A stretch of 52,437 bases of DNA from a virus (IMGVR_UViG_3300032242_002237:1-52437), one strand, 5' to 3'. Counted from the stretch's first letter, positions 5,459-48,155 are shown. The notes: generated from the letters alone by a model not told the origin. Made by a program: numbers and translations.

Positions 5459-5762
5459 AAAAGCTGCCGAACGCATACAGCGCATGCTGACCAAACGAGG
5501 CCATGGCATAGGCATTCGCCTGGGAGTCAACACAAGAGGTTGCTCTGGCATGAGTTATGTGTTAGAATACGTAGATGAACCACAGCCCGGCGATGACAAG
5601 ATCAGTGACAAAGGTGTCACTATCTTTGTGGACCCCAAGTCCACTTTATACCTACTCGGCACACAGGTGGATTGGCAACGTGAAGGACTCAATGAAGGCT
5701 TCAAGTTTGTCAATCCCAACGAGAAGGGCACCTGCGGTTGTGGAGAGAGCTTTCACATATAA
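5442..5762 (+). CDS. iscA: A-type Fe-S carrier IscA
   Basis: GCSGMSY and C-terminal [14 protein letters not shown]. Confidence 0.95.
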
Positions 5763-22766: not shown

Positions 22767-23118
22767 CAATTTTGTCACGCCACCGGATTTTGTCAAGGAC
22801 GAATTCCACACAGTACTGTTGATTGACCTTGACTGGGTGCATGTGGATGAGCTGGCCATATGGTGCAAGACTGCACCTGTGAACCTGAACATCTATATCT
22901 ATCAAGACATCATGCTCAATGAAGCCTGGCTGGCTGACGCCATCAACCGAAGCAACACGATAATCATGAACACAGACAGCAGTGCTGTGGATCACATAAA
23001 GAATCAATTGATCAAAGCATCAAATGTATGGTACTATGGTGACAAGAAGTTTCTTGGCAACCAACAAAAAATCGACAACCCACTGGATTGGTTCGTGAGG
23101 ACATATGGCCACGGATGA
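22753..23118 (+). CDS. Hypothetical phage protein
   Basis: 121 aa, overlapping both neighbours. Confidence 0.7.
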   Translation: MQHYSNFVTPPDFVKDEFHTVLLIDLDWVHVDELAIWCKTAPVNLNIYIYQDIMLNEAWLADAINRSNTIIMNTDSSAVDHIKNQLIKASNVWYYGDKKFLGNQQKIDNPLDWFVRTYGHG

Positions 23119-24310
23119 ACAAGCACAAGTAAGACACATGAGTTGCGACTTCTGTGGCAAGGCACGAGCAGAAGTTACCAAGTTGATTGTGGCCAATGAC
23201 GCCGCTATCTGCAACGAGTGTATAGACCTTTGTCATGATATATTGGAAAAAGAACGCATAGACTTGATCAAGACTGATCGCAAGATTGGTCGGCTGTTGA
23301 ATCCAGTCAAGGTCAAGCAGTTCATGGACCAGTACGTGATTGGACAGGAAGACGCCAAGCGAGCCTTGGCAGTGGCAGTGGTCAACCACTACAAACGAGT
23401 GCATTTCAAAAGCAAGATAGAGATGGAGAAAAGCAATCTCTTGATGTTTGGGCCCACTGGATCCGGCAAGACCCTGTTGGCCAAGACAGTGGCCAGATAT
23501 CTCAATGTGCCGTTTGTGATCGCTGATGCCACCACACTCACACAGGCTGGCTATGTTGGCGAGGATGCTGACAGCTTGATCAGCCGACTGCTGAGTGAAG
23601 CCGACAACGACGTGGAAAAATGCCAGACTGGCATTGTGTTCATTGACGAAATAGACAAGATAGGTCGCAAGAGCGAAAGTGCCAGCCTCACACGTGACGT
23701 TTCCGGTGAAGGTGTACAACAGGCCCTGCTCAAGCTGGTAGAAGGCACCACGGTGAGAGTCAGCGCAGTGGGATCCAAGAAAGAATACGTGGAAGTAGAC
23801 ACCACCAACATATTGTTCATTGCTGGTGGCGCATTTGACGGCCTGGACAAGATCATAGAAGGTCGCAAGCAAGGCAACTCCATTGGCTTTACCAGCAGGC
23901 CCAGCGAAGTCAACACAGTGGATCATGCCATACCCAAAGACTTCATGAAGTATGGAATGATTCCAGAATTTGTTGGACGTTTTCCTATCTCTGTGAGACT
24001 GGATCCACCATCCATCGAAACCATGGTCAGGATCTTGGTCGAGCCCAAGAACAGCATGCTGGCCCAGCAACAGTTTTATTTCATGGCAGATGGTATTGCC
24101 TTGGAATTTGAAGATGCTGCCGTGCTGTGCATAGCACAGCAGGCCCTGGATCTGGGCATTGGAGCACGTGGGCTCAAGACAGTGATAGACGACATAATGA
24201 TGCCCATCATGTATGGCATTCCGGATCTCAAGAAAGAAGACGTCAAAGAATTGGTCATAACAGAAGGAATGATAACTAACAATAAAGCAAAGGAGACACA
24301 TGCGATTTAA
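23105..24310 (+). CDS. clpX: ATP-dependent Clp protease ATPase ClpX
   Basis: C4 zinc finger CDFC...[42 protein letters not shown] loop, GARGL. Confidence 0.95.
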
Positions 24311-24539
24311 GAAACCAATGGTAGCACAGGGATTGAAGGTAGAAGTAGTTGATGGCCAAGTTGAAAAGGCCATGCGCAAGTTCAAGAAAAAAGTGATCGA
24401 AAGCGGATTGCTACAAGAACTGCGTGAGCGTGAGTTTTATGAAAAGCCCACAACTGCTCGCAAGAAAGCCAAGAATTCAGCCAAGCGACGCTGGCAGAAA
24501 AAAGTAGCGGCTGACCAGTTGCCTAAAAAAATGTATTGA
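24300..24539 (+). CDS. rpsU: Ribosomal protein bS21
   Basis: VEKAMRKFKKKV..SGLLQELREREFYEKPT. Confidence 0.92.
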   Translation: MRFKKPMVAQGLKVEVVDGQVEKAMRKFKKKVIESGLLQELREREFYEKPTTARKKAKNSAKRRWQKKVAADQLPKKMY

Positions 24540-24830: not shown

Positions 24831-24840
24831 TGTATAAATA
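24810..24840 (+). promoter_or_regulatory. Overlapping sigma70 and late promoter for hsp20
   Basis: TTGACT-17 bp-TATAAA; perfect TATAAATA at 24833-24840. Confidence 0.75.
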
Positions 24841-24900: not shown

Positions 24901-25365
24901 ATGACACCATCACAAATCCAAACCATTCAGTTTGACCTACCTGCACTGCATCGCCACTTTGTGGGATTCGACAACATCTTTGAAGAGATCAATCGAACCT
25001 TCCACCAGGCCAAGCAGGACAACTACCCTCCACACAACATCATCCGCACTGCCGAAAATCGTTTCACGATTGAACTGGCCGTAGCTGGCTTTGATCAAAG
25101 TGAGCTGGACGTGGAAGTTGCGTCAAACGAATACAACCAACAGGTCCTTACCATTTCAGGCAAGCGCAACCGAGACGAAGATCAGACCAGAGAATATCTG
25201 CACCGTGGTCTTGCCGCTCGTAATTTTGAGCGCAGTTTCACGCTACAGAATCATGTGGAGATCACAAACGTGGCCGTGGAAAACGGAATCATGAGCGTGA
25301 ATCTCGAGCAGAGGATTCCTGAGAGTTTGAAACCTAAAAAGGTTGCAATTACTTTCAAGAAGTAA
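24901..25365 (+). CDS. Small heat shock protein (Hsp20/IbpA-like)
   Basis: FVGFD, NYPPHNI, IELAVAGF, YLHRGLAARNFERSFTL, NGIM. Confidence 0.95.
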   Translation: MTPSQIQTIQFDLPALHRHFVGFDNIFEEINRTFHQAKQDNYPPHNIIRTAENRFTIELAVAGFDQSELDVEVASNEYNQQVLTISGKRNRDEDQTREYLHRGLAARNFERSFTLQNHVEITNVAVENGIMSVNLEQRIPESLKPKKVAITFKK

Positions 25366-25422: not shown

Positions 25423-25749
25423 ATGTCCGACGATACAATCATCAAGCCAAAAGTGGAACACAGTCTGAAACTAGATCCCAAGCTCAACATTCCTGAACCC
25501 AAGATGTTCAAGGTGATCTTTGTCAACGATGAAGTGACCACCATGGAGTTCATTGTGGAATGTCTCAAAGCCATCTTTCGCTATGAGGAAGAAGAAGCAC
25601 ATGCCAAGACCATGCAAATCCACGAAGAAGGAACTGGGGTGGTAGCTGTGTTGCCATTTGAAATTGCTGAACAGAAAGGCATCGAAGCCACTGTGCTGGC
25701 ACGTAACAATGGCTTTCCTTTGCAAATCAAACTTGAACTGGACAACTGA
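25423..25749 (+). CDS. clpS: N-degron adaptor ClpS
   Basis: PKMFKVIFVNDEVTTMEFIV, QIHEEG, EIAEQK, GFPL. Confidence 0.93.
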   Translation: MSDDTIIKPKVEHSLKLDPKLNIPEPKMFKVIFVNDEVTTMEFIVECLKAIFRYEEEEAHAKTMQIHEEGTGVVAVLPFEIAEQKGIEATVLARNNGFPLQIKLELDN

Positions 25750-26303: not shown

Positions 26304-26545
26304 CACCTATCACTGAAAACCAATTGATATTGGAAAAACTAGACGCACTCACACACATGGTAGACAATCTCAGCGGTCGTGTCAGTGCGCTGGATACCAA
26401 GCTCATGTTCCTACAGCAGGATGTTGATACCATCAAGGAAGACACCGTGGTGATCGAAGAAACCTTGGTAGATGGCATCAAAGGCATCATCAAGATCATT
26501 CCACAGCCTGAGCAGAAAAACACCTGGGTCAAGGAACAACTATGA
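26300..26545 (+). CDS. Small coiled-coil hypothetical protein
   Basis: 81 aa with ATGA overlaps at both ends. Confidence 0.6.
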   Translation: MTPITENQLILEKLDALTHMVDNLSGRVSALDTKLMFLQQDVDTIKEDTVVIEETLVDGIKGIIKIIPQPEQKNTWVKEQL

Positions 26546-26874
26546 ACATAGTATTTGGTGACGATGTAGCAGAAGAACTGCGCAAGAAATACACCTTGCT
26601 TGAAGTTGACACAGTACAGCATCCTGAGCATGGCCTGGTCAGTGCTTGGGTGGTTTTGCCCATGGAATCCATTGCCATGGAAATGGCCAGCCTGGATCAA
26701 AATGTCATGCAACATGCCATGTTGATTGAATCACTCAAGAAAGACGATACCAGCACAGTACGGCTGATGTGCCAGGCACTGACTGGCAAGTTTGGTGGAG
26801 AGATGGACACTTTCTATGAAGAAATCACCAAACGCATTGATAACACTGGTTCTACACTGTTATCTAATTCTTAG
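26542..26874 (+). CDS. Stand-alone homolog of the C-terminus of the class III cyclase at 32822
   Basis: MCQALTGKFGGEMDTFYEEITKRID aligns with cyclase MCAKLKGNFGGQMDKYYKIWIERCD. Confidence 0.7.
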   Translation: MNIVFGDDVAEELRKKYTLLEVDTVQHPEHGLVSAWVVLPMESIAMEMASLDQNVMQHAMLIESLKKDDTSTVRLMCQALTGKFGGEMDTFYEEITKRIDNTGSTLLSNS

Positions 26875-26887
26875 CAGTTAAAAAATT

Positions 26888-26923
26888 CCCATTTCTCCTT
26901 AAGTATAGTTAAGGAGTAGTGGG
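26888..26923 (+). promoter_or_regulatory. Late promoter (TAAGTA) in an SD-occluding hairpin heading the curli operon
   Basis: CTCCTTAA-gtatag-TTAAGGAG, outer CCCA/TGGG; SD AAGGAG in the 3' arm. Confidence 0.65.
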
Positions 26924-27373
26924 ATGATAAAAAAAATAACAACCCTGATAGTTTTCGCTGCCGCGGTGGTACCTGCATCTGCGGCTCCTCTTGGCGATTA
27001 CCAGTTCAAAAGCCCCAGTTTCAATGGTGCAGGCTATTCCAGCCATGTGTTGTCCATCGAAAGCACAGAAATGGCACGTGCCAAGGCCATACAAGATGCT
27101 TTCACTGCCGCACAGCAGGCTGAGGCCAACAAGGCCGCCAACTTGCCTATAAACCAATTCTTGGTAAACCTTGAGTCACGAATATATGCGCAGATTTCTC
27201 AGAATCTGGCCACTGCCATGTTTGCTGGTGGCAACAACACATCCGGCACCATTGACTTCCAAGGCAATACCATCAACTGGATCAACCAAGGCAACAACAT
27301 AAAGTTGACCATATTTGATCCCAACAACAGCCAAACCATTATCAACGTACCCATACTAGGGGTGCCACACTAA
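26924..27373 (+). CDS. csgF: Curli assembly protein CsgF-like
   Basis: Signal peptide then YQFKSPSFNG, FLVNLESRIYAQIS; directly upstream of csgG. Confidence 0.8.
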   Translation: MIKKITTLIVFAAAVVPASAAPLGDYQFKSPSFNGAGYSSHVLSIESTEMARAKAIQDAFTAAQQAEANKAANLPINQFLVNLESRIYAQISQNLATAMFAGGNNTSGTIDFQGNTINWINQGNNIKLTIFDPNNSQTIINVPILGVPH

Positions 27374-27374
27374 C

Positions 27375-28538
27375 ATGAACAAGCTCTTACTCACTGTCAT
27401 GCTGACTGCCTTGCTGGGAGGTTGTGCATCCATGCAAAACTTCTCCGAACCCACACGTCCGGAAGTCAGCAAGAATACCATGCAAAATGATTTTGATGCC
27501 TTGCCTTCACCTGCGACCGGAAGACCAATTGTAGTAGCAGTTTATAGCTTTGTTGACAAGACCGGACAGCGCAAGCCCATTGCCAATGTGGCCAGCTTGA
27601 GCACAGCCACCACACAGGGTGCTGAAGCATTCTTGATCAAGGCCCTGCAGGATGTGGGCAATGGTCGTTGGTTCCGTGTGGTAGAGCGTGTGGGCATTGA
27701 CAACTTGACCAAGGAACGCTTGATCATCCGCCAGATGCGTGAGGCCTATGAAGGACCCAACGCACAGCCACTGCCGCCCATGACATTTGCCGGCATCATA
27801 TTGGAAGGCGGCATCGTGGGCTACGACAGCTCGACCAAGTCAGGCGGAGCGGCAGCTCGTTGGCTGGGCATTGGCGAACAAACACAATACAGTGAAGACA
27901 CTGTGACCATCAGCCTACGTGCAGTGAGCGTGGCCAATGGTGAAGTGATTGCCGCTGTGACTGTGCAGAAGACCGTGGTCAGTTCTGCGGATTCTGTCAC
28001 AGCATTGAAATTCTTCAGCGACGGAACCAAAGCATTTGAAGCTGAAGCAGGATTGACCTTGAACGAGCCAGTTACCTTGGCTACCAAAGCAGCCGTGGAG
28101 TTTGCTGTGGTAGAACTGATCAAGGAAGGCAAGCGCAAAGGCGTGTGGGATTACGCCCGTCCGGTGTCAAGTATGACACAACCTCCAGTGGCTCCTCCAG
28201 CAGACAAAGCACCAGCCAAGCCTGTAGAAAAAATGGCCGAGCCAGTGAAACCCGTAGAGGACAAAAAAGTTGAAGCAACAAGCACACCTGTTAAAGAAGA
28301 TGAATCCATAAAAGAGGGGCAGGCTGTAGTCAAAGCCGCCAGTGCTTGGGTTAGAAAGGGTCGTAGTTTAGTTGACCCTCCAGTGCGAAGCGTCCGTGAA
28401 GGATTGCAGGTTACCGTGCTTCAAAATCAAGATGGCTGGAGCGAAGTGGAGTTTGACGACAGCTTCGGACATCACAAAGGCTGGATTAAATCAAATTTAT
28501 TAAAACAACAAGAGGCTACAAAGCCCGAAGGAAAATAA
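27375..28538 (+). CDS. csgG: Curli secretion channel CsgG with C-terminal SH3b-like domain
   Basis: Lipobox LGGC; VAVYSFVDKTGQRKP, STATTQGA, WFRVVERVG.DNLTKER.IIR, ILEGGIVGYD; Pro/Lys linker then VRKG..GWSEV..KGWI. Confidence 0.92.
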   Translation: MNKLLLTVMLTALLGGCASMQNFSEPTRPEVSKNTMQNDFDALPSPATGRPIVVAVYSFVDKTGQRKPIANVASLSTATTQGAEAFLIKALQDVGNGRWFRVVERVGIDNLTKERLIIRQMREAYEGPNAQPLPPMTFAGIILEGGIVGYDSSTKSGGAAARWLGIGEQTQYSEDTVTISLRAVSVANGEVIAAVTVQKTVVSSADSVTALKFFSDGTKAFEAEAGLTLNEPVTLATKAAVEFAVVELIKEGKRKGVWDYARPVSSMTQPPVAPPADKAPAKPVEKMAEPVKPVEDKKVEATSTPVKEDESIKEGQAVVKAASAWVRKGRSLVDPPVRSVREGLQVTVLQNQDGWSEVEFDDSFGHHKGWIKSNLLKQQEATKPEGK

Positions 28539-28541
28539 ATC

Positions 28542-29324
28542 ATGAAATATAAGTTCTTAGCGACACTGATTTTGGCGCTGGGGATTACTAATGCAGTTCA
28601 AGCAGGTGATAACGCGATATCTATCGACCAAGTTGGTAATCAGAGCACAATAAACGTAACACAGACAGGAACTAGCAATACTGTCCAAGGCCTGGGCGCC
28701 TCTTTGGGCATACCCGCGGCAAAGATCTACGGCGACAATACCACGGTCAACCTGACCCAGACTGGATCGGGCAACACCTTGTTTCTTGGAGCAGACGCAG
28801 GCGGAACTGGATCTACCAACAGCATCACCTATAACATGACAGGTAGCAACAACCAAGCCAGCGTCAGCTGTAATGACAATGGCACTGGCAAGTGTAACAA
28901 CAACACTGTGAACATCCAACAAACTGGTGATACCAACAATACACTGTTGAACATCAATGGACAGAACAATGGTATTGCTTACACACAGCAAGGCGGTAAC
29001 ACCAACAACTACACTGGTACGTTTACTGGGGACAACATAACCTCCGTCACAAACATACAGGGTGGTAACAATGCAGTGAGCATCAGCAGTTCACCACTGG
29101 CTGGCATTGCCGCACAGACCAAGGTAGACATAGTGGGTGCAGGCAACACAGTTGGTATCACACAGACCGGTGGATCAATTGCAGGCAACTATGCCAGCCT
29201 TTCCTTGAATGGTGTGGGCAATGGCGTGAGTGTTTCGCAGACTGGTACCGCGGCTGATAACGTGCTAAGGGTGACCAGCCAAGGCAACAACAATGTGATG
29301 CGTTTCAACCAAACGAGTAGGTAA
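28542..29324 (+). CDS. Curlin-repeat protein (CsgA/CsgB-like amyloid subunit)
   Basis: Signal peptide; repeated N-x-I/V-x-I/L-x-Q-x-G-x-x-N units (IDQVGNQS, VTQTGTSN, LTQTGSGN, IQQTGDTN, TSQGNNN). Confidence 0.8.
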   Translation: MKYKFLATLILALGITNAVQAGDNAISIDQVGNQSTINVTQTGTSNTVQGLGASLGIPAAKIYGDNTTVNLTQTGSGNTLFLGADAGGTGSTNSITYNMTGSNNQASVSCNDNGTGKCNNNTVNIQQTGDTNNTLLNINGQNNGIAYTQQGGNTNNYTGTFTGDNITSVTNIQGGNNAVSISSSPLAGIAAQTKVDIVGAGNTVGITQTGGSIAGNYASLSLNGVGNGVSVSQTGTAADNVLRVTSQGNNNVMRFNQTSR

Positions 29325-30448
29325 TGAAAAGTTGGGCATTCATACTGTTTGCCGCGTTGATGTACCCATACTGCGCACAGGCCGCAGTGGGTACTATCAC
29401 GGAACAGGTGAATGCTCCTCCAAGCATACAGCGTGACAAACAGACTCTGACAGGAGCCAAGGGCTCGGGTGTAGAAATGAATGATGCTGTGCGCACCACT
29501 GGTGGCAAAGTGGGCATCACGTTCGAAGACAATACCCGAGTACAAGTTACCGAAAACTCCAAAGTGGTCATTGATGAGTTTGTGTATGATCCCAAGAAAG
29601 GATCAGGCAAACTGTCCATCAACATGGCCATGGGCACTGTGCGCTATGCATCAGGTGCCATTGCACACAACAACCCCAGCAATGTTGCCATCAACACACC
29701 CACTGCTACCATTTCAGTGCGAGGCACTGATTTTACCGGTACAGTGGATGAGTTGGGATCCAGCACCTTCATCCTGTTGCCCAGCTGTCCCAATGACAAC
29801 AAGATACGCATGCCTGGCGATGACGTGACCAACTGCAAGGTGGGAGAAATCGTAGTGTCCACTGACCAAGGTGTTGTGATATTGAACCAGGCCTGGCAGG
29901 CCACTGTGGTCACTTCTCGCAACCAACCCCCCAGTCCACCCAAGCTGGTACACCTGGGACTGGATCACATCAACAACTGGTTGATAGTGAGTCCGCCACC
30001 TGAGCTGAGACAGGAAGGCATGAATGACAGATCAGTGCGCCGTCCATATGATTTTCTCAATCAACATTTCCTAGGACCTGTTGCAGAAATAGGCAATGTG
30101 CTGGAACAGCAACAGGCACAGTTTTTCAGAAACAGCCTGCAGAAGAATTCGCTGGAGCAGAGTTTCTTGGCCAATCAATTTGAAGTCATGGGCAATGCAC
30201 TGAGTGAAAACCTGCTGGACAACAAGCACAGCATACTGCCAGACTATCGCAAGTCGTCGGGTGTGGAAGTGGTAATGGATTCCACTGCTGTGCAACTGTG
30301 CTTGAAAGACGCTGCCGGCAACAACCAGTGTGTGCAAACACCCAAGGATCAAAATTCTCAGCTGATACAGTCGCAGGGAAACGTTACCATCAAGAATCGC
30401 GTGAACCAAGGCGGCAATACCAACATCACACTGAAGCAAAGCAACTGA
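29324..30448 (+). CDS. FecR-domain secreted protein
   Basis: Signal peptide; D.VRT..G...ITFEDNT.V.VTENS...IDEFVYDP, G.VRY.SG, I.TPTATISVRGTDF. Confidence 0.85.
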   Translation: MKSWAFILFAALMYPYCAQAAVGTITEQVNAPPSIQRDKQTLTGAKGSGVEMNDAVRTTGGKVGITFEDNTRVQVTENSKVVIDEFVYDPKKGSGKLSINMAMGTVRYASGAIAHNNPSNVAINTPTATISVRGTDFTGTVDELGSSTFILLPSCPNDNKIRMPGDDVTNCKVGEIVVSTDQGVVILNQAWQATVVTSRNQPPSPPKLVHLGLDHINNWLIVSPPPELRQEGMNDRSVRRPYDFLNQHFLGPVAEIGNVLEQQQAQFFRNSLQKNSLEQSFLANQFEVMGNALSENLLDNKHSILPDYRKSSGVEVVMDSTAVQLCLKDAAGNNQCVQTPKDQNSQLIQSQGNVTIKNRVNQGGNTNITLKQSN

Positions 30449-30449
30449 T

Positions 30450-32693
30450 ATGAAAAGATTACTAGCCGCGGCTTTATTACTGATAGGAACAGTGACCACT
30501 GCCTGGAGCCAGGCTGCTCCTGCACCCTACGACATGATCGCCACTGCCTATGTTACCACGACCATAAGCCAGATCGTGGTACTGGATTCAGCTCAGCAGG
30601 CCGCTGGCAATCTCACATTTTCAATACAGGCACACAACGGCGGTGGCCGTCCAGGCCAAGCAGACACTGCAAAAGTACAACTGCAATTCTACAACTCCAG
30701 CAACAGTTTGTTGTACACTGCCAACAGCCAAACCTATTCACTGCCTTTGCCCAATGGCGTGGGCCAACCGGGCATTGATCCCACAGTGCCTTGGACCACC
30801 ATGACCGTGAGTTCAGCCAACTGCGGAGGATCCTGTGCCAACGTGGCCTATGTCAAGGTCATTGCCAGTGGCACTGACGGCAGTTATTGGGCAGGTGACT
30901 ATGGCCCTTGGTACATGGCTCCTTCACTGACGGTGAACGGTGGCGCCAACATACTTTACAATCCTGAATTTGGTCCTTACAACAACGTGAGTGCGCATGG
31001 TTGGTCAATCAGTCCTGCGCTGGGTGCTTGCCAAGGTGCCTGGGGCGGATCAAATCCTTGTATTGCCAACAGTTCAGGTCAGGCAGGACAAAACACCACA
31101 GGCCTGATAGCCAATGCCAATGGTGGCGGTCCTGTGGCCACGGGTGGTACCACTGCCGCACCTGCAGGTGGTACTGCGCAATCAGCACCCAAACCTCCAG
31201 CACCCAATTTCACACAGCTGAAGTTCAGTGCCGCACAGGTAGCAGACAGCCAATGGGATGTGTATGCCTGTACACAGACCAACACTTGCCAAATCTACAG
31301 TACCAACCCAGGAACTGCTTATCAGATTCCTTGGACTTCGGGACAATGGAACTGGCAGTCTGGGCAGTATATCCAATTCTCAGCCACAGGTGATGCCAAC
31401 AATCCATACGAAGCAAAAGTCTACAACAGTGATGGCACACTGGCAGGCACACTGGGCACTGGACACATAGTGAGCATGGGCACAGATAGCAGTGGTCATG
31501 CACTGTTTTTCTTTGTGGGCAACGACAACGACACAGGACAGTTGTTCAGTACCAACTATGGTTTTTCAGGCAATGGTGGCTATACCTGGACCGGCACATT
31601 GAATCCCACAACTGCGCAGGTTGACACATTCGCTGGCTCAGGATCCACCACACCATTGGCCGCAGGTCAGACAGGTGGTACTGCCACAGCGCCCACCGTG
31701 ACCAGTACCACAATAACCAACACCACCAGCATAACCAACAGCTATCCAGCCAGCTGGACTGATTCAGTTCCGACCATAAACATTGGCCCAGGCCCTGGAC
31801 AAAGCATCATAACCAGCACTGATACCACGCTGATAACATCACAACCAGTTATCACTACCACGACCACCACACCAACCATCACCACAAACTACAGTGATGG
31901 CACCAGCAAGACCAGCACTGGCACACCAACTTCTACCACATCCACTTCTACCACATACTCTTCCTCTCTGCAGGTCAATCCGCGCCCCTACATCACAAAC
32001 TATGGCTTGGCCAATCAGGTGTACATGGACCAGATAGGCAGCAACAACACAGTGGATGTGACACAGACTGGCAGGGACAACAACATAGCCGGAGTCAATC
32101 AGCCCAATGCACAGGTGCGTGGCAACAGCAATTCAGTCACTGTGACACAAGGTGGCAGTGGTGGCTTGCCCAACTCTGTGGATCTGTTTGTGCAAGGCAC
32201 TGGCAACACAGTGAGACTGGTGCAGGGAATCAACGCCAATGACACCAGCACCAGTGGACAATACAACAGCACCAGCATCACTGGCAACAACAATCAAGTG
32301 ATCAGCAAGCAGAGCAATGATGGCGGGCTGGGCATGCACTATTCAGCTACCACAGTCACCGGCGACAGCAACACAGTCAACACAGGACAGTACAACAATG
32401 GCGGCAAGTCCATGACCACCACCATCAACGGCAACAACAACACACTCAATGCCAGCCAGACTGGCACTGGACAGCACTCGCTCAGCACCACCATGACCGG
32501 ATATGGCAACAGTGCCACAGTGTCACAGTCCGGCAGCTACGCAGCCTCAGCGTCGATCACGTTGAACAATGCTGGCGGATCCAGTTCAGCCACAGTGATA
32601 CAAAATGCCAACTCAGCACCCACTGCCTACAGCATATATCAATCCTGCTCCAATCCAGCAGGCTGCGGTGTCAGCATCACACAAAATAAATGA
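30450..32693 (+). CDS. Large secreted protein: N-terminal beta-rich passenger domains, Thr-rich linker, C-terminal curlin repeats
   Basis: Signal peptide; Cys pairs; TTTTTTPT linker; NQVYMDQIGSNNTVDVTQTGRDNN and further Q-x-G-x-x-N repeats. Confidence 0.75.
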   Translation: MKRLLAAALLLIGTVTTAWSQAAPAPYDMIATAYVTTTISQIVVLDSAQQAAGNLTFSIQAHNGGGRPGQADTAKVQLQFYNSSNSLLYTANSQTYSLPLPNGVGQPGIDPTVPWTTMTVSSANCGGSCANVAYVKVIASGTDGSYWAGDYGPWYMAPSLTVNGGANILYNPEFGPYNNVSAHGWSISPALGACQGAWGGSNPCIANSSGQAGQNTTGLIANANGGGPVATGGTTAAPAGGTAQSAPKPPAPNFTQLKFSAAQVADSQWDVYACTQTNTCQIYSTNPGTAYQIPWTSGQWNWQSGQYIQFSATGDANNPYEAKVYNSDGTLAGTLGTGHIVSMGTDSSGHALFFFVGNDNDTGQLFSTNYGFSGNGGYTWTGTLNPTTAQVDTFAGSGSTTPLAAGQTGGTATAPTVTSTTITNTTSITNSYPASWTDSVPTINIGPGPGQSIITSTDTTLITSQPVITTTTTTPTITTNYSDGTSKTSTGTPTSTTSTSTTYSSSLQVNPRPYITNYGLANQVYMDQIGSNNTVDVTQTGRDNNIAGVNQPNAQVRGNSNSVTVTQGGSGGLPNSVDLFVQGTGNTVRLVQGINANDTSTSGQYNSTSITGNNNQVISKQSNDGGLGMHYSATTVTGDSNTVNTGQYNNGGKSMTTTINGNNNTLNASQTGTGQHSLSTTMTGYGNSATVSQSGSYAASASITLNNAGGSSSATVIQNANSAPTAYSIYQSCSNPAGCGVSITQNK

Positions 32694-32694
32694 C

Positions 32695-32814
32695 ATGAAC
32701 CATTGGCAGACCCTGATACTTGATGAGTGGTACTATGTGCCCATCACCCTGTTGGCAGGACTCTGGGCATTTGGCATTGGCCTTTTGATTGGTTGGCTGA
32801 TCACAGTATTATAA
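32695..32814 (+). CDS. Small membrane peptide
   Basis: MNHWQTLILDEWYYVPITLLAGLWAFGIGLLIGWLITVL*; fills the gap exactly. Confidence 0.55.
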   Translation: MNHWQTLILDEWYYVPITLLAGLWAFGIGLLIGWLITVL

Positions 32815-32821
32815 ATACTGG

Positions 32822-34861
32822 ATGAAAAAGATACTCACCAGCCCATGGACGGCACTCATCACTCTTGCACTGATTGTAGGCGTAAGGATCGCAGATCCTT
32901 CATTTGTGGAAAGCGTACGACTGCGCTATTTTGACACATTGATCTCCAGTCGAGCACCAACTGAAAACAACATAGTCACTGTAAACATCGACGAAGCCGG
33001 ACTGGACAAGTACGGACAATGGCCGTTGCCAAGGAGTGAGTATGCCAAAATTATTAAAGACCTGTATGATCGTCATGCTGGCCTTGTCGTGCTTAATGTT
33101 ATCATGGCTGACAGCGATCGCACTGGTGGTGATGGCGCTCTCGCAAATGCACTGAAACAGTACCCCACTGTGCTGGTCAATGTGCCCACAGACAAAAACA
33201 AAAACACTCCTCGCAATCCTGGTGCAGTGATCCTGGGGCCAGAGTGGATGGATCGAATAGTGAACTATCCAGGCGTGATGGCCAACGTGCCGGTGTTGGA
33301 GAATGCTGCCGCTGGCGTGGGCACCGTACACACCATGCCTGAGATAGACGGTGTGAATCGTCGCATGCCCTTGATCGTTGCCAGTGGCGAGCACCTGTAC
33401 CCCAGCCTTAGCATGGAAGTGCTACGATTGGCCGCAGGTGACGAAGCTTTCCAAGTCAAGTTGAACGAATGGGGCGTGGAAAAGATGCGCATTCCAAAGT
33501 TTGGTCCTATCTCAACTGATGAGCTGGGCCGTGTTTGGATCGACTGGTCACAAAAGTCACACGCTTATAGTATCACCAACTTGCCTGCTGACTTCGGCGG
33601 AGCAGTAGTCCTTGTGGGTCCTACTGCGGCAGGTATCAGTAATCCACTGCCTACCTCGATTGGTGCAGTGTATCCCAATGAAGCACAGGCCGCTGTGATG
33701 GGTACCATGTTCAACAATGTGAACATACAGCGTCCAGACTGGGCCGACGGTGCTGAGATCATTGGACTGCTGGTAGCAGGATTATTGTTACTATTTTTAA
33801 CAAGGTGGACTTATGCGGGACTTGCGTCGGTCATTGTATTGGTTGTTGGCGGCATTGTTGGTAGTCAGTATGCTTTCACTAACTTTTTATTCTTATTTGA
33901 TGCTACTGCCTTTGCAGTTGGCACAGTCTTGGTCGCTTTGCATGCCTACGGTGTCAAGTTTGTTTCAGAGTTCCTCCAAAAGCAAGCCATAAAGAAACAG
34001 TTTGCTGGCTACTGCTCTAAGGAAGTTGTAGAGCTATTACAAAAAGATCCAGATTTGATCAAGCGTGGTGTGCGCAAAGACGTATCAGTCATGTTCTCAG
34101 ATCTGCGTGGATTTACTCCTATTGGCGAACACTTTGGAGACGACGTTGCTGGACTGGGCCGGTACATGAATGGTTACATGGATGCCATCAGCCAGCCCAT
34201 GTTGGACAACCGTGGCATGGTCATCAAGTATGTGGGTGATGCGAGTATGCACATACACGGTGCTCCTATCGAAGACCCAAACCATGCTAGAACAATCGTT
34301 GCAGTTGGTTTAGAAATGCTGGATGCAGTGGATGAGTATACCAAGATCATGGAAGCACAAGGCTTACCACCAGCCGCAATGGGTTGGGGTTGCAACTCAG
34401 GCATTGGCTTTATTGGCGAAATGGGTTCAACAGAACGACACAGCTATGATATCTTAGGTGACATGGTTTCAACTGCGGCACGACTAGAAGCACGTTGCAA
34501 GGCCTATGGTGTGTTGTGTATCATTGGTGCAGAGACCTACAACAGAACCAAAGACGACTTCTTCTATCTAATGCTAGATAACCTACAACCCAAAGGTAAA
34601 ACTGTAGCCGACTTGATCTACACAGCACTACGCACACGCGGTGTTGATTACTCAAAAGATAAGGCACAGCACGAAGCGATGCACGATTTATACAGAGCTA
34701 AAAAGTTTGACGAAGCTGCCGCTATGTGTGCCAAGCTCAAGGGCAATTTTGGTGGGCAAATGGACAAGTACTACAAGATCTGGATTGAGCGTTGCGACTT
34801 CATGAAGCAACAGGATCTGGGCGACAACTGGAACGGTGAGTTCGTAGCTCACGAAAAATGA
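32822..34861 (+). CDS. CHASE2-domain class III nucleotidyl (probably adenylate) cyclase
   Basis: TM, CHASE2 (IVTVNIDEAGL..YGQWPLPR, DGVNRR.PL), 3 TM, FSDLRGFT, IKYVGDA, GEMGS...YDILGDMVSTAARLE; perfect TATAAATA at 32810. Confidence 0.93.
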   Translation: MKKILTSPWTALITLALIVGVRIADPSFVESVRLRYFDTLISSRAPTENNIVTVNIDEAGLDKYGQWPLPRSEYAKIIKDLYDRHAGLVVLNVIMADSDRTGGDGALANALKQYPTVLVNVPTDKNKNTPRNPGAVILGPEWMDRIVNYPGVMANVPVLENAAAGVGTVHTMPEIDGVNRRMPLIVASGEHLYPSLSMEVLRLAAGDEAFQVKLNEWGVEKMRIPKFGPISTDELGRVWIDWSQKSHAYSITNLPADFGGAVVLVGPTAAGISNPLPTSIGAVYPNEAQAAVMGTMFNNVNIQRPDWADGAEIIGLLVAGLLLLFLTRWTYAGLASVIVLVVGGIVGSQYAFTNFLFLFDATAFAVGTVLVALHAYGVKFVSEFLQKQAIKKQFAGYCSKEVVELLQKDPDLIKRGVRKDVSVMFSDLRGFTPIGEHFGDDVAGLGRYMNGYMDAISQPMLDNRGMVIKYVGDASMHIHGAPIEDPNHARTIVAVGLEMLDAVDEYTKIMEAQGLPPAAMGWGCNSGIGFIGEMGSTERHSYDILGDMVSTAARLEARCKAYGVLCIIGAETYNRTKDDFFYLMLDNLQPKGKTVADLIYTALRTRGVDYSKDKAQHEAMHDLYRAKKFDEAAAMCAKLKGNFGGQMDKYYKIWIERCDFMKQQDLGDNWNGEFVAHEK

Positions 34862-34874
34862 TAGTGGTCGTTTT

Positions 34875-34950
34875 GTAGTTCACGGTAGCGAATCGCTCCC
34901 TACGCCCAGCACCCGGGCACCCTCGCAACTAGTGCGGTCCTAAGGGTGTT
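34875..34950. ncRNA. Putative structured RNA element between convergent genes
   Basis: Three abutting stem-loops: GTAG/CTAC enclosing AGCG/CGCT; GCCC/GGGC; CACCCT/AGGGTG enclosing CGCA/TGCG with a 6-nt bulge; not a simple terminator. Confidence 0.5.
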
Positions 34951-34952
34951 CT

Positions 34953-35339
34953 TTAAGAGCTGCCGCCGGCAGCTTCTTTCTTGTCACTTGGATCAACAGG
35001 CGCAGTGACTTTGCCACTGACCTTGTCTGCTTCGTCTATAGCATCATGGAACTTCTTGTTGGCCTGTGCTTCAACCAAGGCAGTTTCCATAACACGGTCT
35101 GATTCAATCATCTTGCCACGTATGGTCAACACTGTGTTGACCTTTTGGTTCAGACGGATCAAGTCATTGTCCAGCATACGGATGCGATCGATCAATGCAA
35201 TCAACACAGTGTTGGCATCTGAGATCACAGGCTTGACTTCCTTGGTACACCATTCCCACACATACTTGATGATGTAGCCCATGCCCACTGCCATCACAAT
35301 GGGAAAGCCGTATTTGTTAACTAGTTCGACCATGTCCAT
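34953..35339 (-). CDS. Single-TM + coiled-coil protein (YvrJ/holin-like GFP motif); paralog of 36876-37160
   Basis: LVNKYGFPIVMAVGMGY...IALIDRIRMLDNDLIRLN. Confidence 0.7.
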   Translation of the reverse strand: MDMVELVNKYGFPIVMAVGMGYIIKYVWEWCTKEVKPVISDANTVLIALIDRIRMLDNDLIRLNQKVNTVLTIRGKMIESDRVMETALVEAQANKKFHDAIDEADKVSGKVTAPVDPSDKKEAAGGSS

Positions 35340-35346
35340 ATTGTAT

Positions 35347-36120
35347 TTACCTTCCTACGTATACCTTGGGTTCAGCTTCAGCTCTGCGCCGCTCTTCACT
35401 TTTGGGCAACAGGTCTTTGCCATATTGCGGATACTTCTGCTGGCGATCATATGCCACCCACATGAACACACCACCCATGGTGAATATGATCACGATCACT
35501 GCAATGCCTATTATAAATTCATCTCTCAGGCGTCTCATCCTGGCGGCGCGGCGGCGATCTGCCACTGCTTGTCTTTGCATCTGTAGGGTGATAAGAACTT
35601 TTTGTTCTGCCCCTATTTTTTTCATCATGATATTTACATCAGTCCATAGAGCACCCAGCTCTGGGGGACTTTGGTAAATCATTATTTCTTGTAATTCTGT
35701 GCCCATGGCTTCCAACTGCTTGCGCATGAGCACACGCTGTAAGGCACGTTTGCCTAGGCTGTCATCACCAGTATAAACTTGTGTTTTGCTACGTTTTTCT
35801 TCTTCTTCAAATACTGCCAGGCATTTGTAAAAGTTATCAAAATACACACCAAGTTGGTTGCCTATTTCTGTGTAGATATCAGTAGTTTCTGTACTACGCT
35901 TGTTTAATTCTTTGACCCGAGCTTTTTCTTCAGCAAGTTGTTTACGTGCTTCAGGAGGAACAGGCTTGCCCTCATACAACTTGTGGAACTGCTGGTCAAG
36001 GTCTTTGACTATGTCTTTGACCTCACCAGCGGCACCTTTAATGTCCTTATAGAGTTTGCAGCCGGCCTTGACTGCACTCACGGCTCCGTTGGCTAATGCA
36101 AATAGCGTTAACGGATCCAT
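35347..36120 (-). CDS. Helical protein with amphipathic MDPLT N-terminus and C-terminal TM helix
   Basis: 257 aa; MDPLTLFALANGAVSAVK; FIIGIAVIVIIFTMGGVFMWV. Confidence 0.7.
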   Translation of the reverse strand: MDPLTLFALANGAVSAVKAGCKLYKDIKGAAGEVKDIVKDLDQQFHKLYEGKPVPPEARKQLAEEKARVKELNKRSTETTDIYTEIGNQLGVYFDNFYKCLAVFEEEEKRSKTQVYTGDDSLGKRALQRVLMRKQLEAMGTELQEIMIYQSPPELGALWTDVNIMMKKIGAEQKVLITLQMQRQAVADRRRAARMRRLRDEFIIGIAVIVIIFTMGGVFMWVAYDRQQKYPQYGKDLLPKSEERRRAEAEPKVYVGR

Positions 36121-36132
36121 GCCACTCTCCTA

Positions 36133-36717
36133 TTAGAACCACAGGAACAAACCGTTTAGACTCAATAACAATCCAAACCCTGCTACTGCAAAGCTAGCCC
36201 AGAACAAATACATGCTCACAGCCAGGATAGAAGCTGATAGCACAACAATGGCCATTTGGTATGCAGTTGACGCATAACCAATCCATGGGCTACGTTGTTT
36301 AGCATCATCACGTTCTGCTTCCAGTGCCTTGGCTTTCTTCATTAGGTCTTGCTTGCCTTCGCCTGGCTCATTTTCATAACGATCAATCTTGGCTGCCATT
36401 TCTTCTGCACGAGCCCGGTCGCCATTGTGTTGTGCTTCGTACAAGTTTTGTTCTGCTAGACTTTGCTTGATACTCTTGGCTTGGTAGAAACTGTAGGTGT
36501 CATTGGCTTTGATGGTGTTGTTCAACACGGTCGAACCTAACTTACCACCATACCAGGCATTGACTGCTAGACACAGGGCAAACACATTGATGACCATGCC
36601 TGCTTTGTCTTTGATCTTTGCTTCACGTTCGCTACGTGAGCCAACTGGCGGCTTGGGTGTGCTTTCGTCTTTTGGTTGTTTGTTAACCAAGTTTAATACT
36701 GAATCGATTAGTGCCAT
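36133..36717 (-). CDS. DUF4337-like membrane protein
   Basis: NDTYSFYQAKSIKQ motif, periplasmic coiled coil, YQMAIVVLSASIL, 3 TM. Confidence 0.7.
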   Translation of the reverse strand: MALIDSVLNLVNKQPKDESTPKPPVGSRSEREAKIKDKAGMVINVFALCLAVNAWYGGKLGSTVLNNTIKANDTYSFYQAKSIKQSLAEQNLYEAQHNGDRARAEEMAAKIDRYENEPGEGKQDLMKKAKALEAERDDAKQRSPWIGYASTAYQMAIVVLSASILAVSMYLFWASFAVAGFGLLLSLNGLFLWF

Positions 36718-36726
36718 GTATACTCC

Positions 36727-36876
36727 TCAAAATGTAATTGCACCTAGTACAAAACCAATCACCAATCCAATGGCCAAGGCTTTGTATAAATCACTGTCAT
36801 GCCAAAGCGGCTGTGCTCTGAGATATTCCTGTGTGTGTTTTGGTAGACTGTCCCACCATGCTTGATATTTGTTCAT
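36727..36876 (-). CDS. Small membrane protein (not in ORF track)
   Basis: MNKYQAWWDSLPKHTQEYLRAQPLWHDSDLYKALAIGLVIGFVLGAITF*; TGATG overlap with the upstream gene. Confidence 0.7.
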   Translation of the reverse strand: MNKYQAWWDSLPKHTQEYLRAQPLWHDSDLYKALAIGLVIGFVLGAITF

Positions 36877-37160
36877 CAATCTCTCCGGGCATCATTCTTG
36901 CCGTCTGCACGGCTGATACGATCAACGTCGGGTCGCAGGCCCAAGGCATTGCTCACGATGGTGTCAATGCGTATCACATCATGGTTCATGGTCTTCACAC
37001 GATTGTCCAAGGCCGTGATAATGCCAGCCATGCCTTTGATGCTGCCAAGCACACCGCCCAGTAAAAGTTTTATGGTAAGATACACAAAGTAACCACCGGC
37101 AAATGCCATAGCCACCGGAAACCCAAGGTCACCTATTAGTTTGAAGATGTCACCCATCAC
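36876..37160 (-). CDS. Single-TM + coiled-coil protein (YvrJ/holin-like GFP motif)
   Basis: LIGDLGFPVAMAFAGGY...ITALDNRVKTMNHDVIRID; SD AAGGAG. Confidence 0.72.
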   Translation of the reverse strand: MMGDIFKLIGDLGFPVAMAFAGGYFVYLTIKLLLGGVLGSIKGMAGIITALDNRVKTMNHDVIRIDTIVSNALGLRPDVDRISRADGKNDARRD

Positions 37161-37187
37161 AGCTCCTTGTTGATATTATTCTAGTTG

Positions 37188-37230
37188 TATTTATTTCGGA
37201 CAGGCGTTTTTGGATCAGTGCCAATAAATA
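37188..37230. promoter_or_regulatory. Divergent pair of late promoters
   Basis: TAAATA on the minus strand (37188-37193) and on the plus strand (37225-37230). Confidence 0.6.
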
Positions 37231-44343: not shown

Positions 44344-44964
44344 ATGCCACAATTCGTACCTACCGTACTAGAAAAAACTTCCAATGGCGAACGTGCCTAT
44401 GACATCTACAGTCGCTTGCTCAAGGACCGTATCGTCATGCTGGACACAGAAGTAAACCAAAACTCAGCCAGCCTTACTGTGGCACAGATGCTGTTTTTGG
44501 AAAGCGAGAATCCTGAAGCGGATATCCTTTTCTACATCAACAGCCCAGGTGGTTCAGTCACAGCAGGCTTGGCCATTTACGATACCATGCAGTTTATCAA
44601 ATGCGACGTTTCAACCATTGTGTTGGGACAGGCCTGTTCCATGGGCAGTTTCCTAGCACAGGCAGGCACGCCGGGCAAGCGCATCGTGTTGCCAGAGTCA
44701 CGCACAATGATCCATCGTGTGAGTTCGGGCACCCCAGGCACCAGTGGTTCAGTCCATGTGCAGGAACTGGAATTTGAGGATGCAAAACGCACCTTTGAAG
44801 AAAGCATGCGCATCAACAAACGCCTGACAGAACTGTATGTCAAGCACAATACCGCAGGCAAGACCTATGATGAACTGTATCAGGCCATGAAGTTTGACAC
44901 ATTCCTGTCAGCCGAAGAAGCAGTGGCGTATGGGCTTGCAGATCGTGTGAGCGAAAAACGGTAA
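44344..44964 (+). CDS. clpP: Clp protease proteolytic subunit ClpP
   Basis: [40 protein letters not shown] (Ser), MIH (His), [16 protein letters not shown]. Confidence 0.96.
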
Positions 44965-47160: not shown

Positions 47161-48155
47161 AATCCAAAGACTTCATTGGCACCAGCGAAGTATTCCTAGA
47201 CATGGACGGTGTGCTGGCTGACTTCTTTACTGAGTATGCCAAACTGGCCGGCATCGAGTCCGGCAACTACAGAGACATTCCGCCTGCCAAGGTCGACCCT
47301 ACCTTGGACAAGATGATAGGCACTGACTTTTTCAATCGCTTGCCTGTGTGCAACAATGCCGAGCAAGTGGTCAGCACCAGCGTGAAGATATTTGGTCACT
47401 ACAACATCTGCTCCAGTCCCCTGCGTGGCGACTTCAAGAACAGCGAGCAATGGAAAAAGGTCTGGATCGAACGCAACCTGTCACCTGCACCTGCTCGTAT
47501 CTTGATCACACCCAACAAGGCCAAGTATGCCAAACAGCCCGACGGTACTCCCAACATCCTGGTAGACGATCGTGGCAGCAACATCACTGCCTGGGAAGCC
47601 GCAGGTGGCATTGGTATCAAGTACCAAGCAGACGAGAACAGCATCAGCGACCTGCTGAACGGATTCAAACGTGCCATGTCTATCCTGGCCAAAGAAAAAC
47701 CACATGAGCCACAAAAGCTACAGAGCCTGGATCGAGGCAAGATGATTGCTGTGCAAAGCAGTGGCGACCAGGATGAAGAGCCACATCAGCCCTTGAAAGA
47801 AGGCATTGAAGGCAACCAAGAACTGGTCAGCAATTTCATACGCTGGGTCTACAAGAAACTGCACATCAATCTGCCCATGCCCAAGATACAGTTTGCAGAC
47901 AAGAAAGAAAGCGACCATCAGGACCGCACCGGCTACTACAATCCTGCCACGCATGTGATGTGGATCTATACCGGCAACAGGAACCTGGTAGACATCCTGC
48001 GCACAGTGGCACATGAGCTCACACATCACAAGCAACGCGAAGAAAACACAGAAATAAACACAGCCAAACTGAGCAAGATCGAAAGCCAGGCCGACATGGC
48101 CGCTGGCATGTTGATGAAGCTGTGGATCAAGAAACACCCGGAGATCGTGCAATGA
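47157..48155 (+). CDS. Fusion: HAD 5'(3')-nucleotidase + zincin-like domain
   Basis: FLDMDGVLADF, ICSSP, KAKYA, ILVDDR; linker PLKE|G; LRTVAHELTHHKQ..E.QAD. Confidence 0.8.
   Translation: MKSKDFIGTSEVFLDMDGVLADFFTEYAKLAGIESGNYRDIPPAKVDPTLDKMIGTDFFNRLPVCNNAEQVVSTSVKIFGHYNICSSPLRGDFKNSEQWKKVWIERNLSPAPARILITPNKAKYAKQPDGTPNILVDDRGSNITAWEAAGGIGIKYQADENSISDLLNGFKRAMSILAKEKPHEPQKLQSLDRGKMIAVQSSGDQDEEPHQPLKEGIEGNQELVSNFIRWVYKKLHINLPMPKIQFADKKESDHQDRTGYYNPATHVMWIYTGNRNLVDILRTVAHELTHHKQREENTEINTAKLSKIESQADMAAGMLMKLWIKKHPEIVQ

Follow-up and report, generated by a model that had tools for sequence, protein, structure and literature searches.

A phage curli-type gene set with a FecR-like protein and a predicted CHASE2 adenylate cyclase

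Described phage curli modules and the locus examined

In the available text of three papers, genes of the type VIII (curli) secretion system (T8SS) are described in phages. Zaragoza-Solas et al. (2020) reported CsgF and CsgG in pelagimyophages and proposed a 'sibling capture' (PMC7029224), and for the phage Melnitz a pore that times lysis was suggested by Buchholz et al. (2022; PMC9004378). As described by Wittmers et al. (2022), the set comprises CsgF, CsgG, CsgA/B, FecR, a second CsgA/B and an adenylate cyclase, with one or two upstream 'histidine kinases'; it is present in podo- and myovirus pelagiphages, with superinfection defence, sibling capture and import discussed, while bacterial T8SS operons are without FecR and the cyclase, and phage curli systems were found at all 65 GOV2.0 stations (PMC9599517). 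The present analysis concerns a module of this kind in IMGVR_UViG_3300032242_002237, a virus record estimated to be 15% complete, whose whole stretch of 52,437 nt is called the window and provides the numbering of all genes (Table 1).

An earlier note on this DNA had stated that curli genes occur in some aquatic phages, which is true; the novelty that it attached to the locus was overstated, as the set with FecR and a cyclase appears in the available text of PMC9599517. Because the same set is found there and in isolates deposited in GenBank, the window module is regarded as a further member of the published kind. The term CHASE2 does not occur in the main texts of PMC7029224 and PMC9599517, nor the word 'cyclase' in the available text of PMC9004378, and a literature search for CsgG, CHASE2 and FecR together returned nothing.

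When the window CsgG was compared by tblastn with 50,697 phage records, the matches were Melnitz (4), HTVC008M (2) and one 1.5-kb fragment record; megablast of the whole region against the same records gave no match. The gene order is the same in Melnitz (gp99-104) and HTVC008M (gp014-019), deposited as MZ577097 (gp97-104) and NC_020484 (gp011-019), and in both isolates it reads CsgF, CsgG, a curlin-associated protein, a FecR-domain or hypothetical protein, a second curlin or hypothetical protein and an adenylate/guanylate cyclase. As in Melnitz gp101-104 and HTVC008M gp016-019, the FecR gene of the window follows the first curlin gene and precedes the second curlin and the cyclase. The pelagiphage modules share with the window 41-43% identity in CsgG, 43-45% in FecR and 36-45% in the cyclase, as well as both proteins of the family phrog_18771 and a T4-like host phage. 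Meanwhile, the window lineage is larger, has its phrog_18771 pair downstream and convergent, and possesses an extra copy of the cyclase C-terminus, an SH3 tail on about half of its CsgG proteins and a second curlin of up to 852 amino acids (aa) with lectin-like heads.

The module is almost certainly a phage type VIII (curli) set joined by a FecR-like protein and an adenylate cyclase. As a whole, it is best explained as a curli export module with an inherited signalling arm, to which a probability of roughly 0.55 is given. Regarding the parts of this reading, export of fibres by the module is probable, and a functional coupling of the fibre or secretion state to cyclic AMP (cAMP) is rather doubtful.

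The genes of the set are closely linked in related viruses. A CsgG search of a viral collection returned 151 relatives, and 80 loci were kept, with 50-71% CsgG identity. CsgF, a curlin, FecR and the cyclase are present in 40/40 loci having at least 9.5 kb downstream of csgG, and FecR in all 60 with at least 2.5 kb; a curlin-tailed open reading frame (ORF) follows FecR in 41/44 loci, mostly with a 4-nt overlap. Thus, the co-occurrence with csgFG and curlins, whose absence the earlier note had named as a ground for rejecting its proposal, is complete for cyclase and FecR wherever the flank is sufficient. In other loci, the gap between the second curlin and the cyclase holds GT4 glycosyltransferases, a sugar-nucleotide epimerase, a carbamoyltransferase, an ATP-grasp enzyme and metallophosphoesterases, and this cargo suggests that the module sits in a surface-remodelling island. 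Calcineurin-like metallophosphoesterases were noted at this position in 3 of 13 loci sampled (L016:14028-14813, L053:14535-15305 and L057:15284-16057). As their family includes cAMP phosphodiesterases, these enzymes may break down the product of the cyclase.

A scan of genome contigs with the cyclase alignment found 15 further loci, all in metagenome-assembled genomes (MAGs) of scattered phyla, labelled Chitinophagaceae, Luteolibacter, Rhodobacteraceae, Bacteroidetes, Pirellulales, Nisaea, Flavobacteriaceae and Pelagibacter (L084-L098). By tblastn, the nine contigs above about 5.8 kb have FecR or CsgG/CsgF next to the cyclase, six of them together with phrog_18771; the other six loci are stretches of 0.7-5.4 kb with little besides the cyclase. 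As the longer contigs carry further module genes, they are probably mis-binned phage contigs. A compact module was observed in one of them (L094:99-7451), consisting of DUF7936, CsgF, CsgG, a 209-aa ORF, FecR and a CHASE2 cyclase that lacks the C-terminal segment; with an adjoining phage integrase and AAA_24 gene and 52% GC, it is taken as a temperate-phage or prophage form.

Table 1. Features of the module and of its immediate surroundings, numbered in the window
Feature	Position	Strand	Basis
110-aa cytoplasmic protein; C-terminal half a stand-alone paralogue of the cyclase C-terminal segment	26542..26874	+	
CsgF homologue, signal peptide	26924..27373	+	Pfam CsgF E 3.1e-13 (residues 5-143); phrog_35372 E 6e-40
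CsgG lipoprotein channel, Pro/Ala/Lys-rich linker, C-terminal bacterial SH3	27375..28538	+	Pfam CsgG E 9.4e-50
260-aa curlin-repeat fibre subunit, signal peptide	28542..29324	+	profile with 15 homologues
Secreted 374-aa FecR-like protein	29324..30448	+	Pfam FecR E 4.6e-11; phrog_37870 E 8e-104
747-aa protein: signal peptide, two mosaic heads, Thr/Ser-rich linker, C-terminal curlin solenoid	30450..32693	+	Curlin_rpt E 5.3e-5
39-aa hydrophobic ORF, doubtful gene, outside the conserved module	32695..32814	+	one hydrophobic stretch
TATAAATA, T4-late-promoter-like	32810..32817	+	exact; 4 nt before the cyclase ATG
CHASE2 sensor, class III cyclase and C-terminal helical segment, inner membrane	32822..34861	+	Pfam CHASE2 E 7.9e-40, Guanylate_cyc E 3.4e-13
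128-aa small membrane protein, conserved module companion	34953..35339	-	phrog_18771 E 3.7e-29
257-aa protein, C-terminal transmembrane segment (197-225)	35347..36120	-	hydropathy; Pfam and PHROG without match
DUF4337 membrane protein	36133..36717	-	Pfam DUF4337 E 5.6e-32
50-aa ORF, TTG start, C-terminal hydrophobic stretch; uncertain gene	36727..36879	-	hydropathy
94-aa small membrane protein, the most conserved protein of the neighbourhood	36876..37160	-	phrog_18771 E 4e-30

Module components and their bacterial counterparts

The csgF-like, csgG, curlin, FecR, curlin-tailed and CHASE2 cyclase genes were recovered by Pfam, or by a curlin profile, where the earlier note had placed them, packed tightly on the plus strand between 26.5 and 34.9 kb. 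CsgF is present in 80/80 related viral loci, and a PDB sequence search with the window protein gave no match. CsgG aligns with E. coli CsgG (3x2r) over residues 4-262 (E 4.2e-48) and carries the lipobox LLGGC. Its C-terminal SH3_3 match (E 8.6e-4) is under the curated Pfam cut-off. In related loci, 40 of 76 CsgG ORFs are 350 aa or longer, and SH3_3 or SH3_4 was found by Pfam in 10 of 16 long homologues; an SH3 tail is thus predicted on about half of the CsgG copies, and phmmer and blastp searches with the tail of the window against other CsgG ORFs gave no matches.

The 260-aa ORF has no Pfam match at E <= 0.01. Despite this, it is considered a curlin, because the profile built from it and its 15 homologues matches the curlin-repeat structure 8c50 (E 2.8e-18) and E. 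coli CsgA (8enq, E 2.9e-4), and because Curlin_rpt is found in 16/16 members of the family at E <= 1 (best 2e-12; window copy 0.038). The family alignment also shows invariant Q-x-G-x-x-N columns at regular spacing. In the AlphaFold2 (AF2) model of the 747-aa protein, the predicted local distance difference test (pLDDT) is 70-83 for a head (residues 34-163) and 70-92 for the tail (515-747). Its Foldseek list is led by the sugar-binding domain of Fbs1 (E 2.9e-4, TM-score 0.48), followed by carbohydrate-binding modules and lectins, with weak matches to phage baseplate and needle proteins (E 0.03-0.06). Two alternative head modules exist in the second-curlin family, both of which are present in the window copy, while some relatives possess further inserts; these modules are confined to this gene position, and the ORF ranges from 191 to 852 aa across related loci. 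F5_F8_type_C was found by Pfam in 2 of 12 homologues, and a PA14 domain, considered as a candidate, was not found by Pfam at E <= 0.01. From its sequence and model, the second curlin is therefore predicted to be a lectin-like part of the fibre, modular and variable between strains. Cleavable Sec-type signal peptides are present in CsgF, both curlins and the FecR-like protein, and this argues against the curlins being ordinary virion fibres, an outcome that the earlier note had allowed for.

The FecR-like protein consists of a signal peptide, a FecR/PupR-type β-domain (about residues 20-215), a low-confidence linker and a small conserved C-terminal β-domain (AF2 model, pLDDT 64). As compared by VIA, the model resembles the PupR cell-surface signalling domain 6ovm_R (Z 14.7, root-mean-square deviation 2.7, 134 residues aligned) and the anti-sigma protein 4m0h_A (Z 13.4), and Foldseek matches it to 6ovk_R (E 1.7e-4). 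In addition, residues 19-114 match 5ix9, a 'Cell surface anchoring domain' (VIA Z 6.7, 73/76 residues, 26% identity), presumably from the anchoring N-terminus of a giant ice-binding adhesin. For the C-terminal domain, which bears the invariant motif N-R-V-N-x-G-G-x-T-I-I-x-L-x-Q, VIA returns generic Ig-like sandwiches only (Z ~3.3). The periplasmic β-domain with the PupR C-terminal signalling fold is shared with FecR/PupR regulators, and the solved PupR entry shows the signalling domain complexed with an outer-membrane transducer domain. The window protein differs from them by its other C-terminal domain and by a signal peptide in place of the N-terminal anti-sigma domain and transmembrane segment, so that no cytoplasmic anti-sigma domain is present and the β-domain directly follows the signal peptide; moreover, extracytoplasmic function (ECF) sigma and TonB-dependent transducer families are absent from the window ORFs scanned. 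It is not an anti-sigma factor, and by analogy may act as a periplasmic protein-protein adaptor.

The cyclase also matches phrog_35576 (E 4e-184), with CHASE2 spanning residues 14-322. By hydropathy, an N-terminal stretch (3-29) and an extended hydrophobic region (307-381) that precedes the catalytic domain give the architecture of a CHASE2 sensor: a periplasmic domain between an N-terminal transmembrane segment and a transmembrane cluster, then a cytoplasmic output. In mammalian and mycobacterial class III cyclases, catalysis depends on two metal-binding Asp residues, a specificity Lys with Asp or Thr, and transition-state Arg and Asn. D427, D473, K469 and R554 of the window enzyme are invariant in 12/12 aligned sequences, and 46/46 phage cyclases retain the two metal-binding Asp motifs and the Lys that specifies adenine; their substrate and transition-state positions are Asp and Ser in 38 and Thr and Asn in 8. 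The specificity residues are of the adenylate type, and adenylate cyclase activity is predicted from them. A complex prediction for the periplasmic part of CHASE2 (22-312) with FecR (21-215) scored 0.00 in two runs without controls, a result that counts neither for nor against a contact.

Upstream of the block, the earlier note had recognised a copy of the cyclase C-terminus, which proves to be a remote paralogue: the 110-aa ORF aligns by BLASTP with cyclase residues 616-659 (14/44 identities, E 8e-7), and a profile of the cyclase C-terminus matches it (E 3.7e-5) together with 11 small ORFs in related loci (best 5.4e-11), most of which sit directly upstream of csgF. Pfam and PHROG have no match for it.

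Two facing minus-strand genes also belong with the set. Their products, of 128 and 94 aa, are paralogues within phrog_18771, which among the 50,697 phage records is confined to 6 records of Melnitz and HTVC008M, all with CsgG. By tblastn at E <= 1e-5, the 128-aa protein is detected in 52 of the 80 loci, and as an ORF in 34 of the 40 with at least 9.5 kb past csgG; the 94-aa protein is detected in 45, with identity of up to 92% where CsgG has 50-71%. All 30 nearest ESM Atlas clusters of the 94-aa protein are viral, and the Atlas offers for it only a sub-threshold YvrJ lead (0.89). In Melnitz and HTVC008M, homologues immediately precede csgF, whereas the window pair is downstream and convergent. 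This position in the isolates, the co-occurrence, the viral-only distribution and the high identity assign the pair to the module. From their position, they are probably the 'HK' genes of PMC9599517. Pfam finds no kinase domain in either, and the 128-aa protein has a weak holin match (phrog_4898, E 0.0015).

Counterparts were surveyed in 301 alphaproteobacterial genomes. A close CsgG is encoded by six, including one MAG that holds a phage-like contig (G001) and was left out of the csgG operons. In the other five (L139-L143), csgF, csgG and one or more curlin genes stand in the phage order, with CsgG 43-49% identical and some large ORFs matching the curlin profile, and FecR, the cyclase or phrog_18771 is present within about 9 kb in 0/5. 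Compared with bacterial curli systems (E. coli csgBAC/csgDEFG and the alphaproteobacterial operons), the window shares the CsgG lipoprotein, CsgF, Sec-exported curlins and, with the alphaproteobacteria, the csgF-csgG-curlin order. It adds the FecR-like protein, the CHASE2 cyclase and phrog_18771, and differs in its CsgG-SH3 fusion, a curlin with non-curlin heads and an altered constriction.

Meanwhile, the FecR profile was matched in 103/301 genomes, by its N-terminal half only. In 5 of the 20 best regions, a CHASE2 protein adjoins the FecR gene, four being cyclases and one a SpoIIE phosphatase (L125, L127, L131, L133 and L138), and CsgG, CsgF or a curlin was found in 0 of these 20, four of which were unscorable owing to giant ORFs running past the fetched ends. 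The four cyclases match the phage cyclase profile at E 5e-102 to 6.9e-144, and in L133 and L138 the match reaches the C-terminal segment. Bacterial FecR-CHASE2 and csgF-csgG-curlin units thus occupy separate loci among those examined, which suggests that the phage module combines two units.

In bacteria, the FecR domain mostly forms the N-terminal part of a large protein (518-2119 aa), and some of these proteins contain cadherin, Ig, lectin or RTX domains. The L131 protein, of 2119 aa, contains He_PIG, Big_9, cadherin and Laminin_G_3; that of L135, of 871 aa, has RTX repeats, and a stand-alone ORF nearby matches only the cyclase C-terminal segment (E 3.5e-16). As a separate observation, FecR-type N-termini of giant adhesin-like proteins (cadherin, Ig, ConA-like lectin, RTX) lie beside CHASE2 cyclases in L131, L135 and L133. 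What phage and bacterial pairs share is a secreted FecR-domain protein encoded beside an inner-membrane CHASE2 sensor; the bacterial pairs are without a T8SS nearby, whereas the phage FecR protein has only 374 aa and is followed by a separate curlin-tailed head protein. Related arrangements appear in the available text of two papers: a LysM-FecR protein of Burkholderia, 'BiofilmReg', adjoins a CHASE2 histidine kinase (PMC5192318), and the Clr target smc02177 of S. meliloti has a FecR domain (PMC5498481). Literature searches for FecR N-termini of adhesins beside CHASE2 cyclases found no description. In S. meliloti, smc02177 is presumably located beside the CHASE2 cyclase gene cyaD1.

Adjacent genes, promoter-like motifs and phage lineage

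The earlier note had described five facing membrane-protein genes. All five exist and four pass the hydropathy threshold; the gene at 34953-35339 is the one below it, and is a paralogue of that at 36876-37160. As a part of the module, this block holds only for the two phrog_18771 genes, which are conserved, while the DUF4337 gene is found by tblastn in 4/80 loci and the 257-aa gene in 2/80, both being local insertions that are not conserved with the module. The transmembrane peptide noted before the cyclase exists as a hydrophobic ORF of 39 aa, most plausibly starting at 32695, and lacks conservation: a small hydrophobic ORF precedes the cyclase in 9 of 44 related loci, none of them similar to it.

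Late-type promoters had been placed at 26900 and 32810. The second is an exact TATAAATA, which we take to be the T4-type late promoter consensus, although it stands only 4 nt from the ATG; near 26900 this motif is absent, and only TATAGTTA is found there. The window has three exact copies of TATAAATA, where 0.35 would be expected. Of the shorter core TAAATA, 22 copies are on the plus strand, 14 of them at most 60 nt upstream of a plus-strand ORF start, and 8 on the minus strand, where the core precedes both phrog_18771 genes (35349 and 37193). The genes from csgF to the curlins have no TAAATA motif of their own in the window, the nearest upstream copy being at 24835. In many related loci, TAAATAC stands about 30 nt before csgF, making a T4-like late-type motif plausible for the family. 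'Late' expression of the module, which depends here on one promoter-like motif, may be proposed accordingly with caution. It was also observed that a GTAAATAC-like motif recurs upstream of ORFs on both strands (for example at 2327, 20723, 32812 and 43767, and on the minus strand at 35349 and 37193), with two classes of spacing from the start codon, about 9-15 nt and about 25-51 nt. The short spacing, shared by several related loci before the cyclase, would make transcripts nearly leaderless.

Regarding the lineage, the window encodes a ribonucleotide reductase, endolysin-like enzymes and a tail-spike-like protein, with PHROG matches among them, which indicates a phage context. Five related records of 212-266 kb are estimated to be 55-72% complete, and two of them carry a T4 gp23-type capsid gene (E 1e-82); a T4-like lineage with a very large genome is derived from these records and this gene. 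Its GC content is about 49%. The neighbours of the module are non-structural, with Hsp20, ClpS and an exonuclease upstream and UvdE downstream, and the candidate endolysins (15294-15896 and 48122-49477) are more than 10 kb away. The latter ORF unites a dCMP/cytidine deaminase domain (29-135) with a GH19 chitinase/lysozyme-like domain (320-418), an unusual fusion. Homologues of ClpX (23105-24310), ClpS (25423-25749), ClpP (44344-44964), ribosomal protein S21 (24300-24539), Hsp20 (24901-25365) and IscU/IscA-type Fe-S assembly proteins (5072-5762) are also encoded, and may form a sizeable proteostasis and cofactor toolkit.

A relative that is about 95% identical is present in four lake-water runs, all from one study; these are labelled metatranscriptomic, are flagged as probably DNA and yielded multi-gene contigs. 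The relative is collinear with the window from Hsp20 to FecR, diverges at 30352-32306 and resumes at the curlin tail and the cyclase, so that the head region has been exchanged at strain level. Besides, where the window has 33 bases separating the end of the 747-aa gene from the small hydrophobic ORF (32691-32725), the relative has 369 letters (runs X3-X6). With the cargo genes of other loci, this replacement marks the pre-cyclase junction as an insertion hot spot.

Proposed role and rival explanations

If the module is a curli export system with an inherited signalling arm, an infected cell would gain an outer-membrane CsgG channel with a periplasmic SH3 tail, CsgF and exported curlins. CsgG and CsgF would export the curlins, resulting in surface fibres that bear glycan-binding heads, and these fibres may remodel the surface of the infected cell, promoting adhesion or aggregation of neighbouring hosts and/or shielding the cell from other phages. 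The signalling arm, derived from bacterial pairs of FecR-domain and CHASE2 genes, would consist of the FecR-like protein and the CHASE2 cyclase and would report the envelope or surface state as cytoplasmic cAMP, to be read by a host receptor. A bolder version, which is speculative and improbable at present, regards FecR-CHASE2 as the phage form of a widespread bacterial device in which the periplasmic FecR-type N-terminus of a surface adhesin reports the state of the adhesin (export, load or attachment) to CHASE2; the phage would have divided the adhesin between FecR and a curlin-tailed protein with lectin heads, with CsgG/CsgF taking over export, so that contact sensed through the fibres would, by way of cAMP, tune late expression or lysis timing to neighbouring hosts or competing phages.

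Several observations weigh against the export and signalling reading. A 747-aa substrate must cross the narrow CsgG channel unfolded, and the constriction loop of this channel reads KPIANVASL compared with KPYPASNF in E. coli, with Y->I, N->S and F->L replacements and one extra residue. Families of CsgE, CsgC/CsgH and CsgD are absent by Pfam from the 64 window ORFs scanned, as the earlier note had remarked of csgE, csgC and csgD, and pelagiphages likewise are without accessory curli genes in the available text of PMC9599517. Melnitz-infected cultures showed no clumping, by cytograms or transmission electron microscopy, as far as the available text of PMC9004378 goes. On the signalling side, Ser occupies the canonical transition-state Asn position of the cyclase (V-S-T-A-A-R in the window compared with V-N-x-A-S-R). 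A cNMP_binding protein is absent from the window ORFs scanned and was found in 0/5 large related virus records, so that the cAMP receptor would have to be the host's. The FecR C-terminal motif, tried as a curlin repeat, was rejected, since hhalign pairs only the signal peptides (probability 6.7%). Moreover, one related locus (L072) shares with the window 68% identity in CsgG and 92% in the 94-aa protein, but only 38% in the cyclase; cyclase alleles therefore look exchanged between close modules, which fits poorly with a tight co-evolution of FecR and CHASE2.

The last point also favours the strongest rival, in which the fibres and pore of the T8SS and the FecR-CHASE2 cyclase are independent, with the cyclase raising cAMP on a periplasmic cue unrelated to curli, as part of host takeover. 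Alphaproteobacteria hold the two units apart (0/20 FecR regions and 0/5 CsgG operons with both), and unrelated cargo separates the second curlin from the cyclase in many loci. However, the FecR gene is flanked by the curlin genes, with a 4-nt overlap into the second in most loci, the units co-occur in 40/40 loci and, in the available text of PMC9599517, in T4-like and podovirus pelagiphages as well, and the phrog_18771 pair accompanies the whole set; independence is accordingly a minority view, although one to be taken seriously. The lysis-timing pore, in which CsgG with or without CsgF is a gated outer-membrane pore that triggers lysis under regulation by the other genes, is less likely still. 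It was proposed for Melnitz from structural modelling and synteny, and could draw on the altered constriction, the missing CsgE gate and the N-terminal transmembrane segments and faint holin match of the phrog_18771 proteins. On the other hand, that proposal, in the available text of PMC9004378, assumed csgA/B to be missing, whereas Sec-exported curlins are present in every locus, and the candidate endolysins are remote from the module. A pore of about 1 nm in the outer membrane leaves the inner membrane polarised, which also counts against it.

An ungated CsgG might instead admit nutrients or cofactors, with FecR/CHASE2 sensing import in the manner of ferric citrate signalling. This agrees with the lack of CsgE and with the name of the FecR family, and uptake is discussed in the available text of PMC9599517 and PMC7029224, but it is improbable, as it leaves two conserved curlin genes and CsgF unexplained; the FecR-like protein has no anti-sigma domain and no transducer or ECF sigma partner among the window ORFs scanned, and its bacterial relatives are N-termini of large, partly adhesin-like proteins and not iron regulators. 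The least credible of the rivals makes the curlin proteins fibres or decoration of the virion, with CsgG/F incidental. Their mosaic, strain-variable heads do behave like those of receptor-binding proteins, and the weak Foldseek matches to baseplate and needle proteins point the same way; against this stand the Sec-type signal peptides of the curlins, CsgF and the FecR-like protein, the CsgG lipobox and the non-structural neighbours of the genes.

With curli export and an inherited signalling arm as the preferred reading, the finding extends the eight-gene set beyond pelagiphages to much larger T4-like phages, with a close relative in lake-water data. New here are CHASE2 as the sensor of the cyclase, the bacterial FecR/CHASE2 counterparts, the modular second curlin, the phrog_18771 pair, the SH3 tail and the replacement of Asn by Ser. 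Should this arm indeed respond to the state of the fibres or of secretion, the virus would encode a trans-envelope sensor with a second messenger as its output, and the bacterial CHASE2-FecR pairs would gain a first function.

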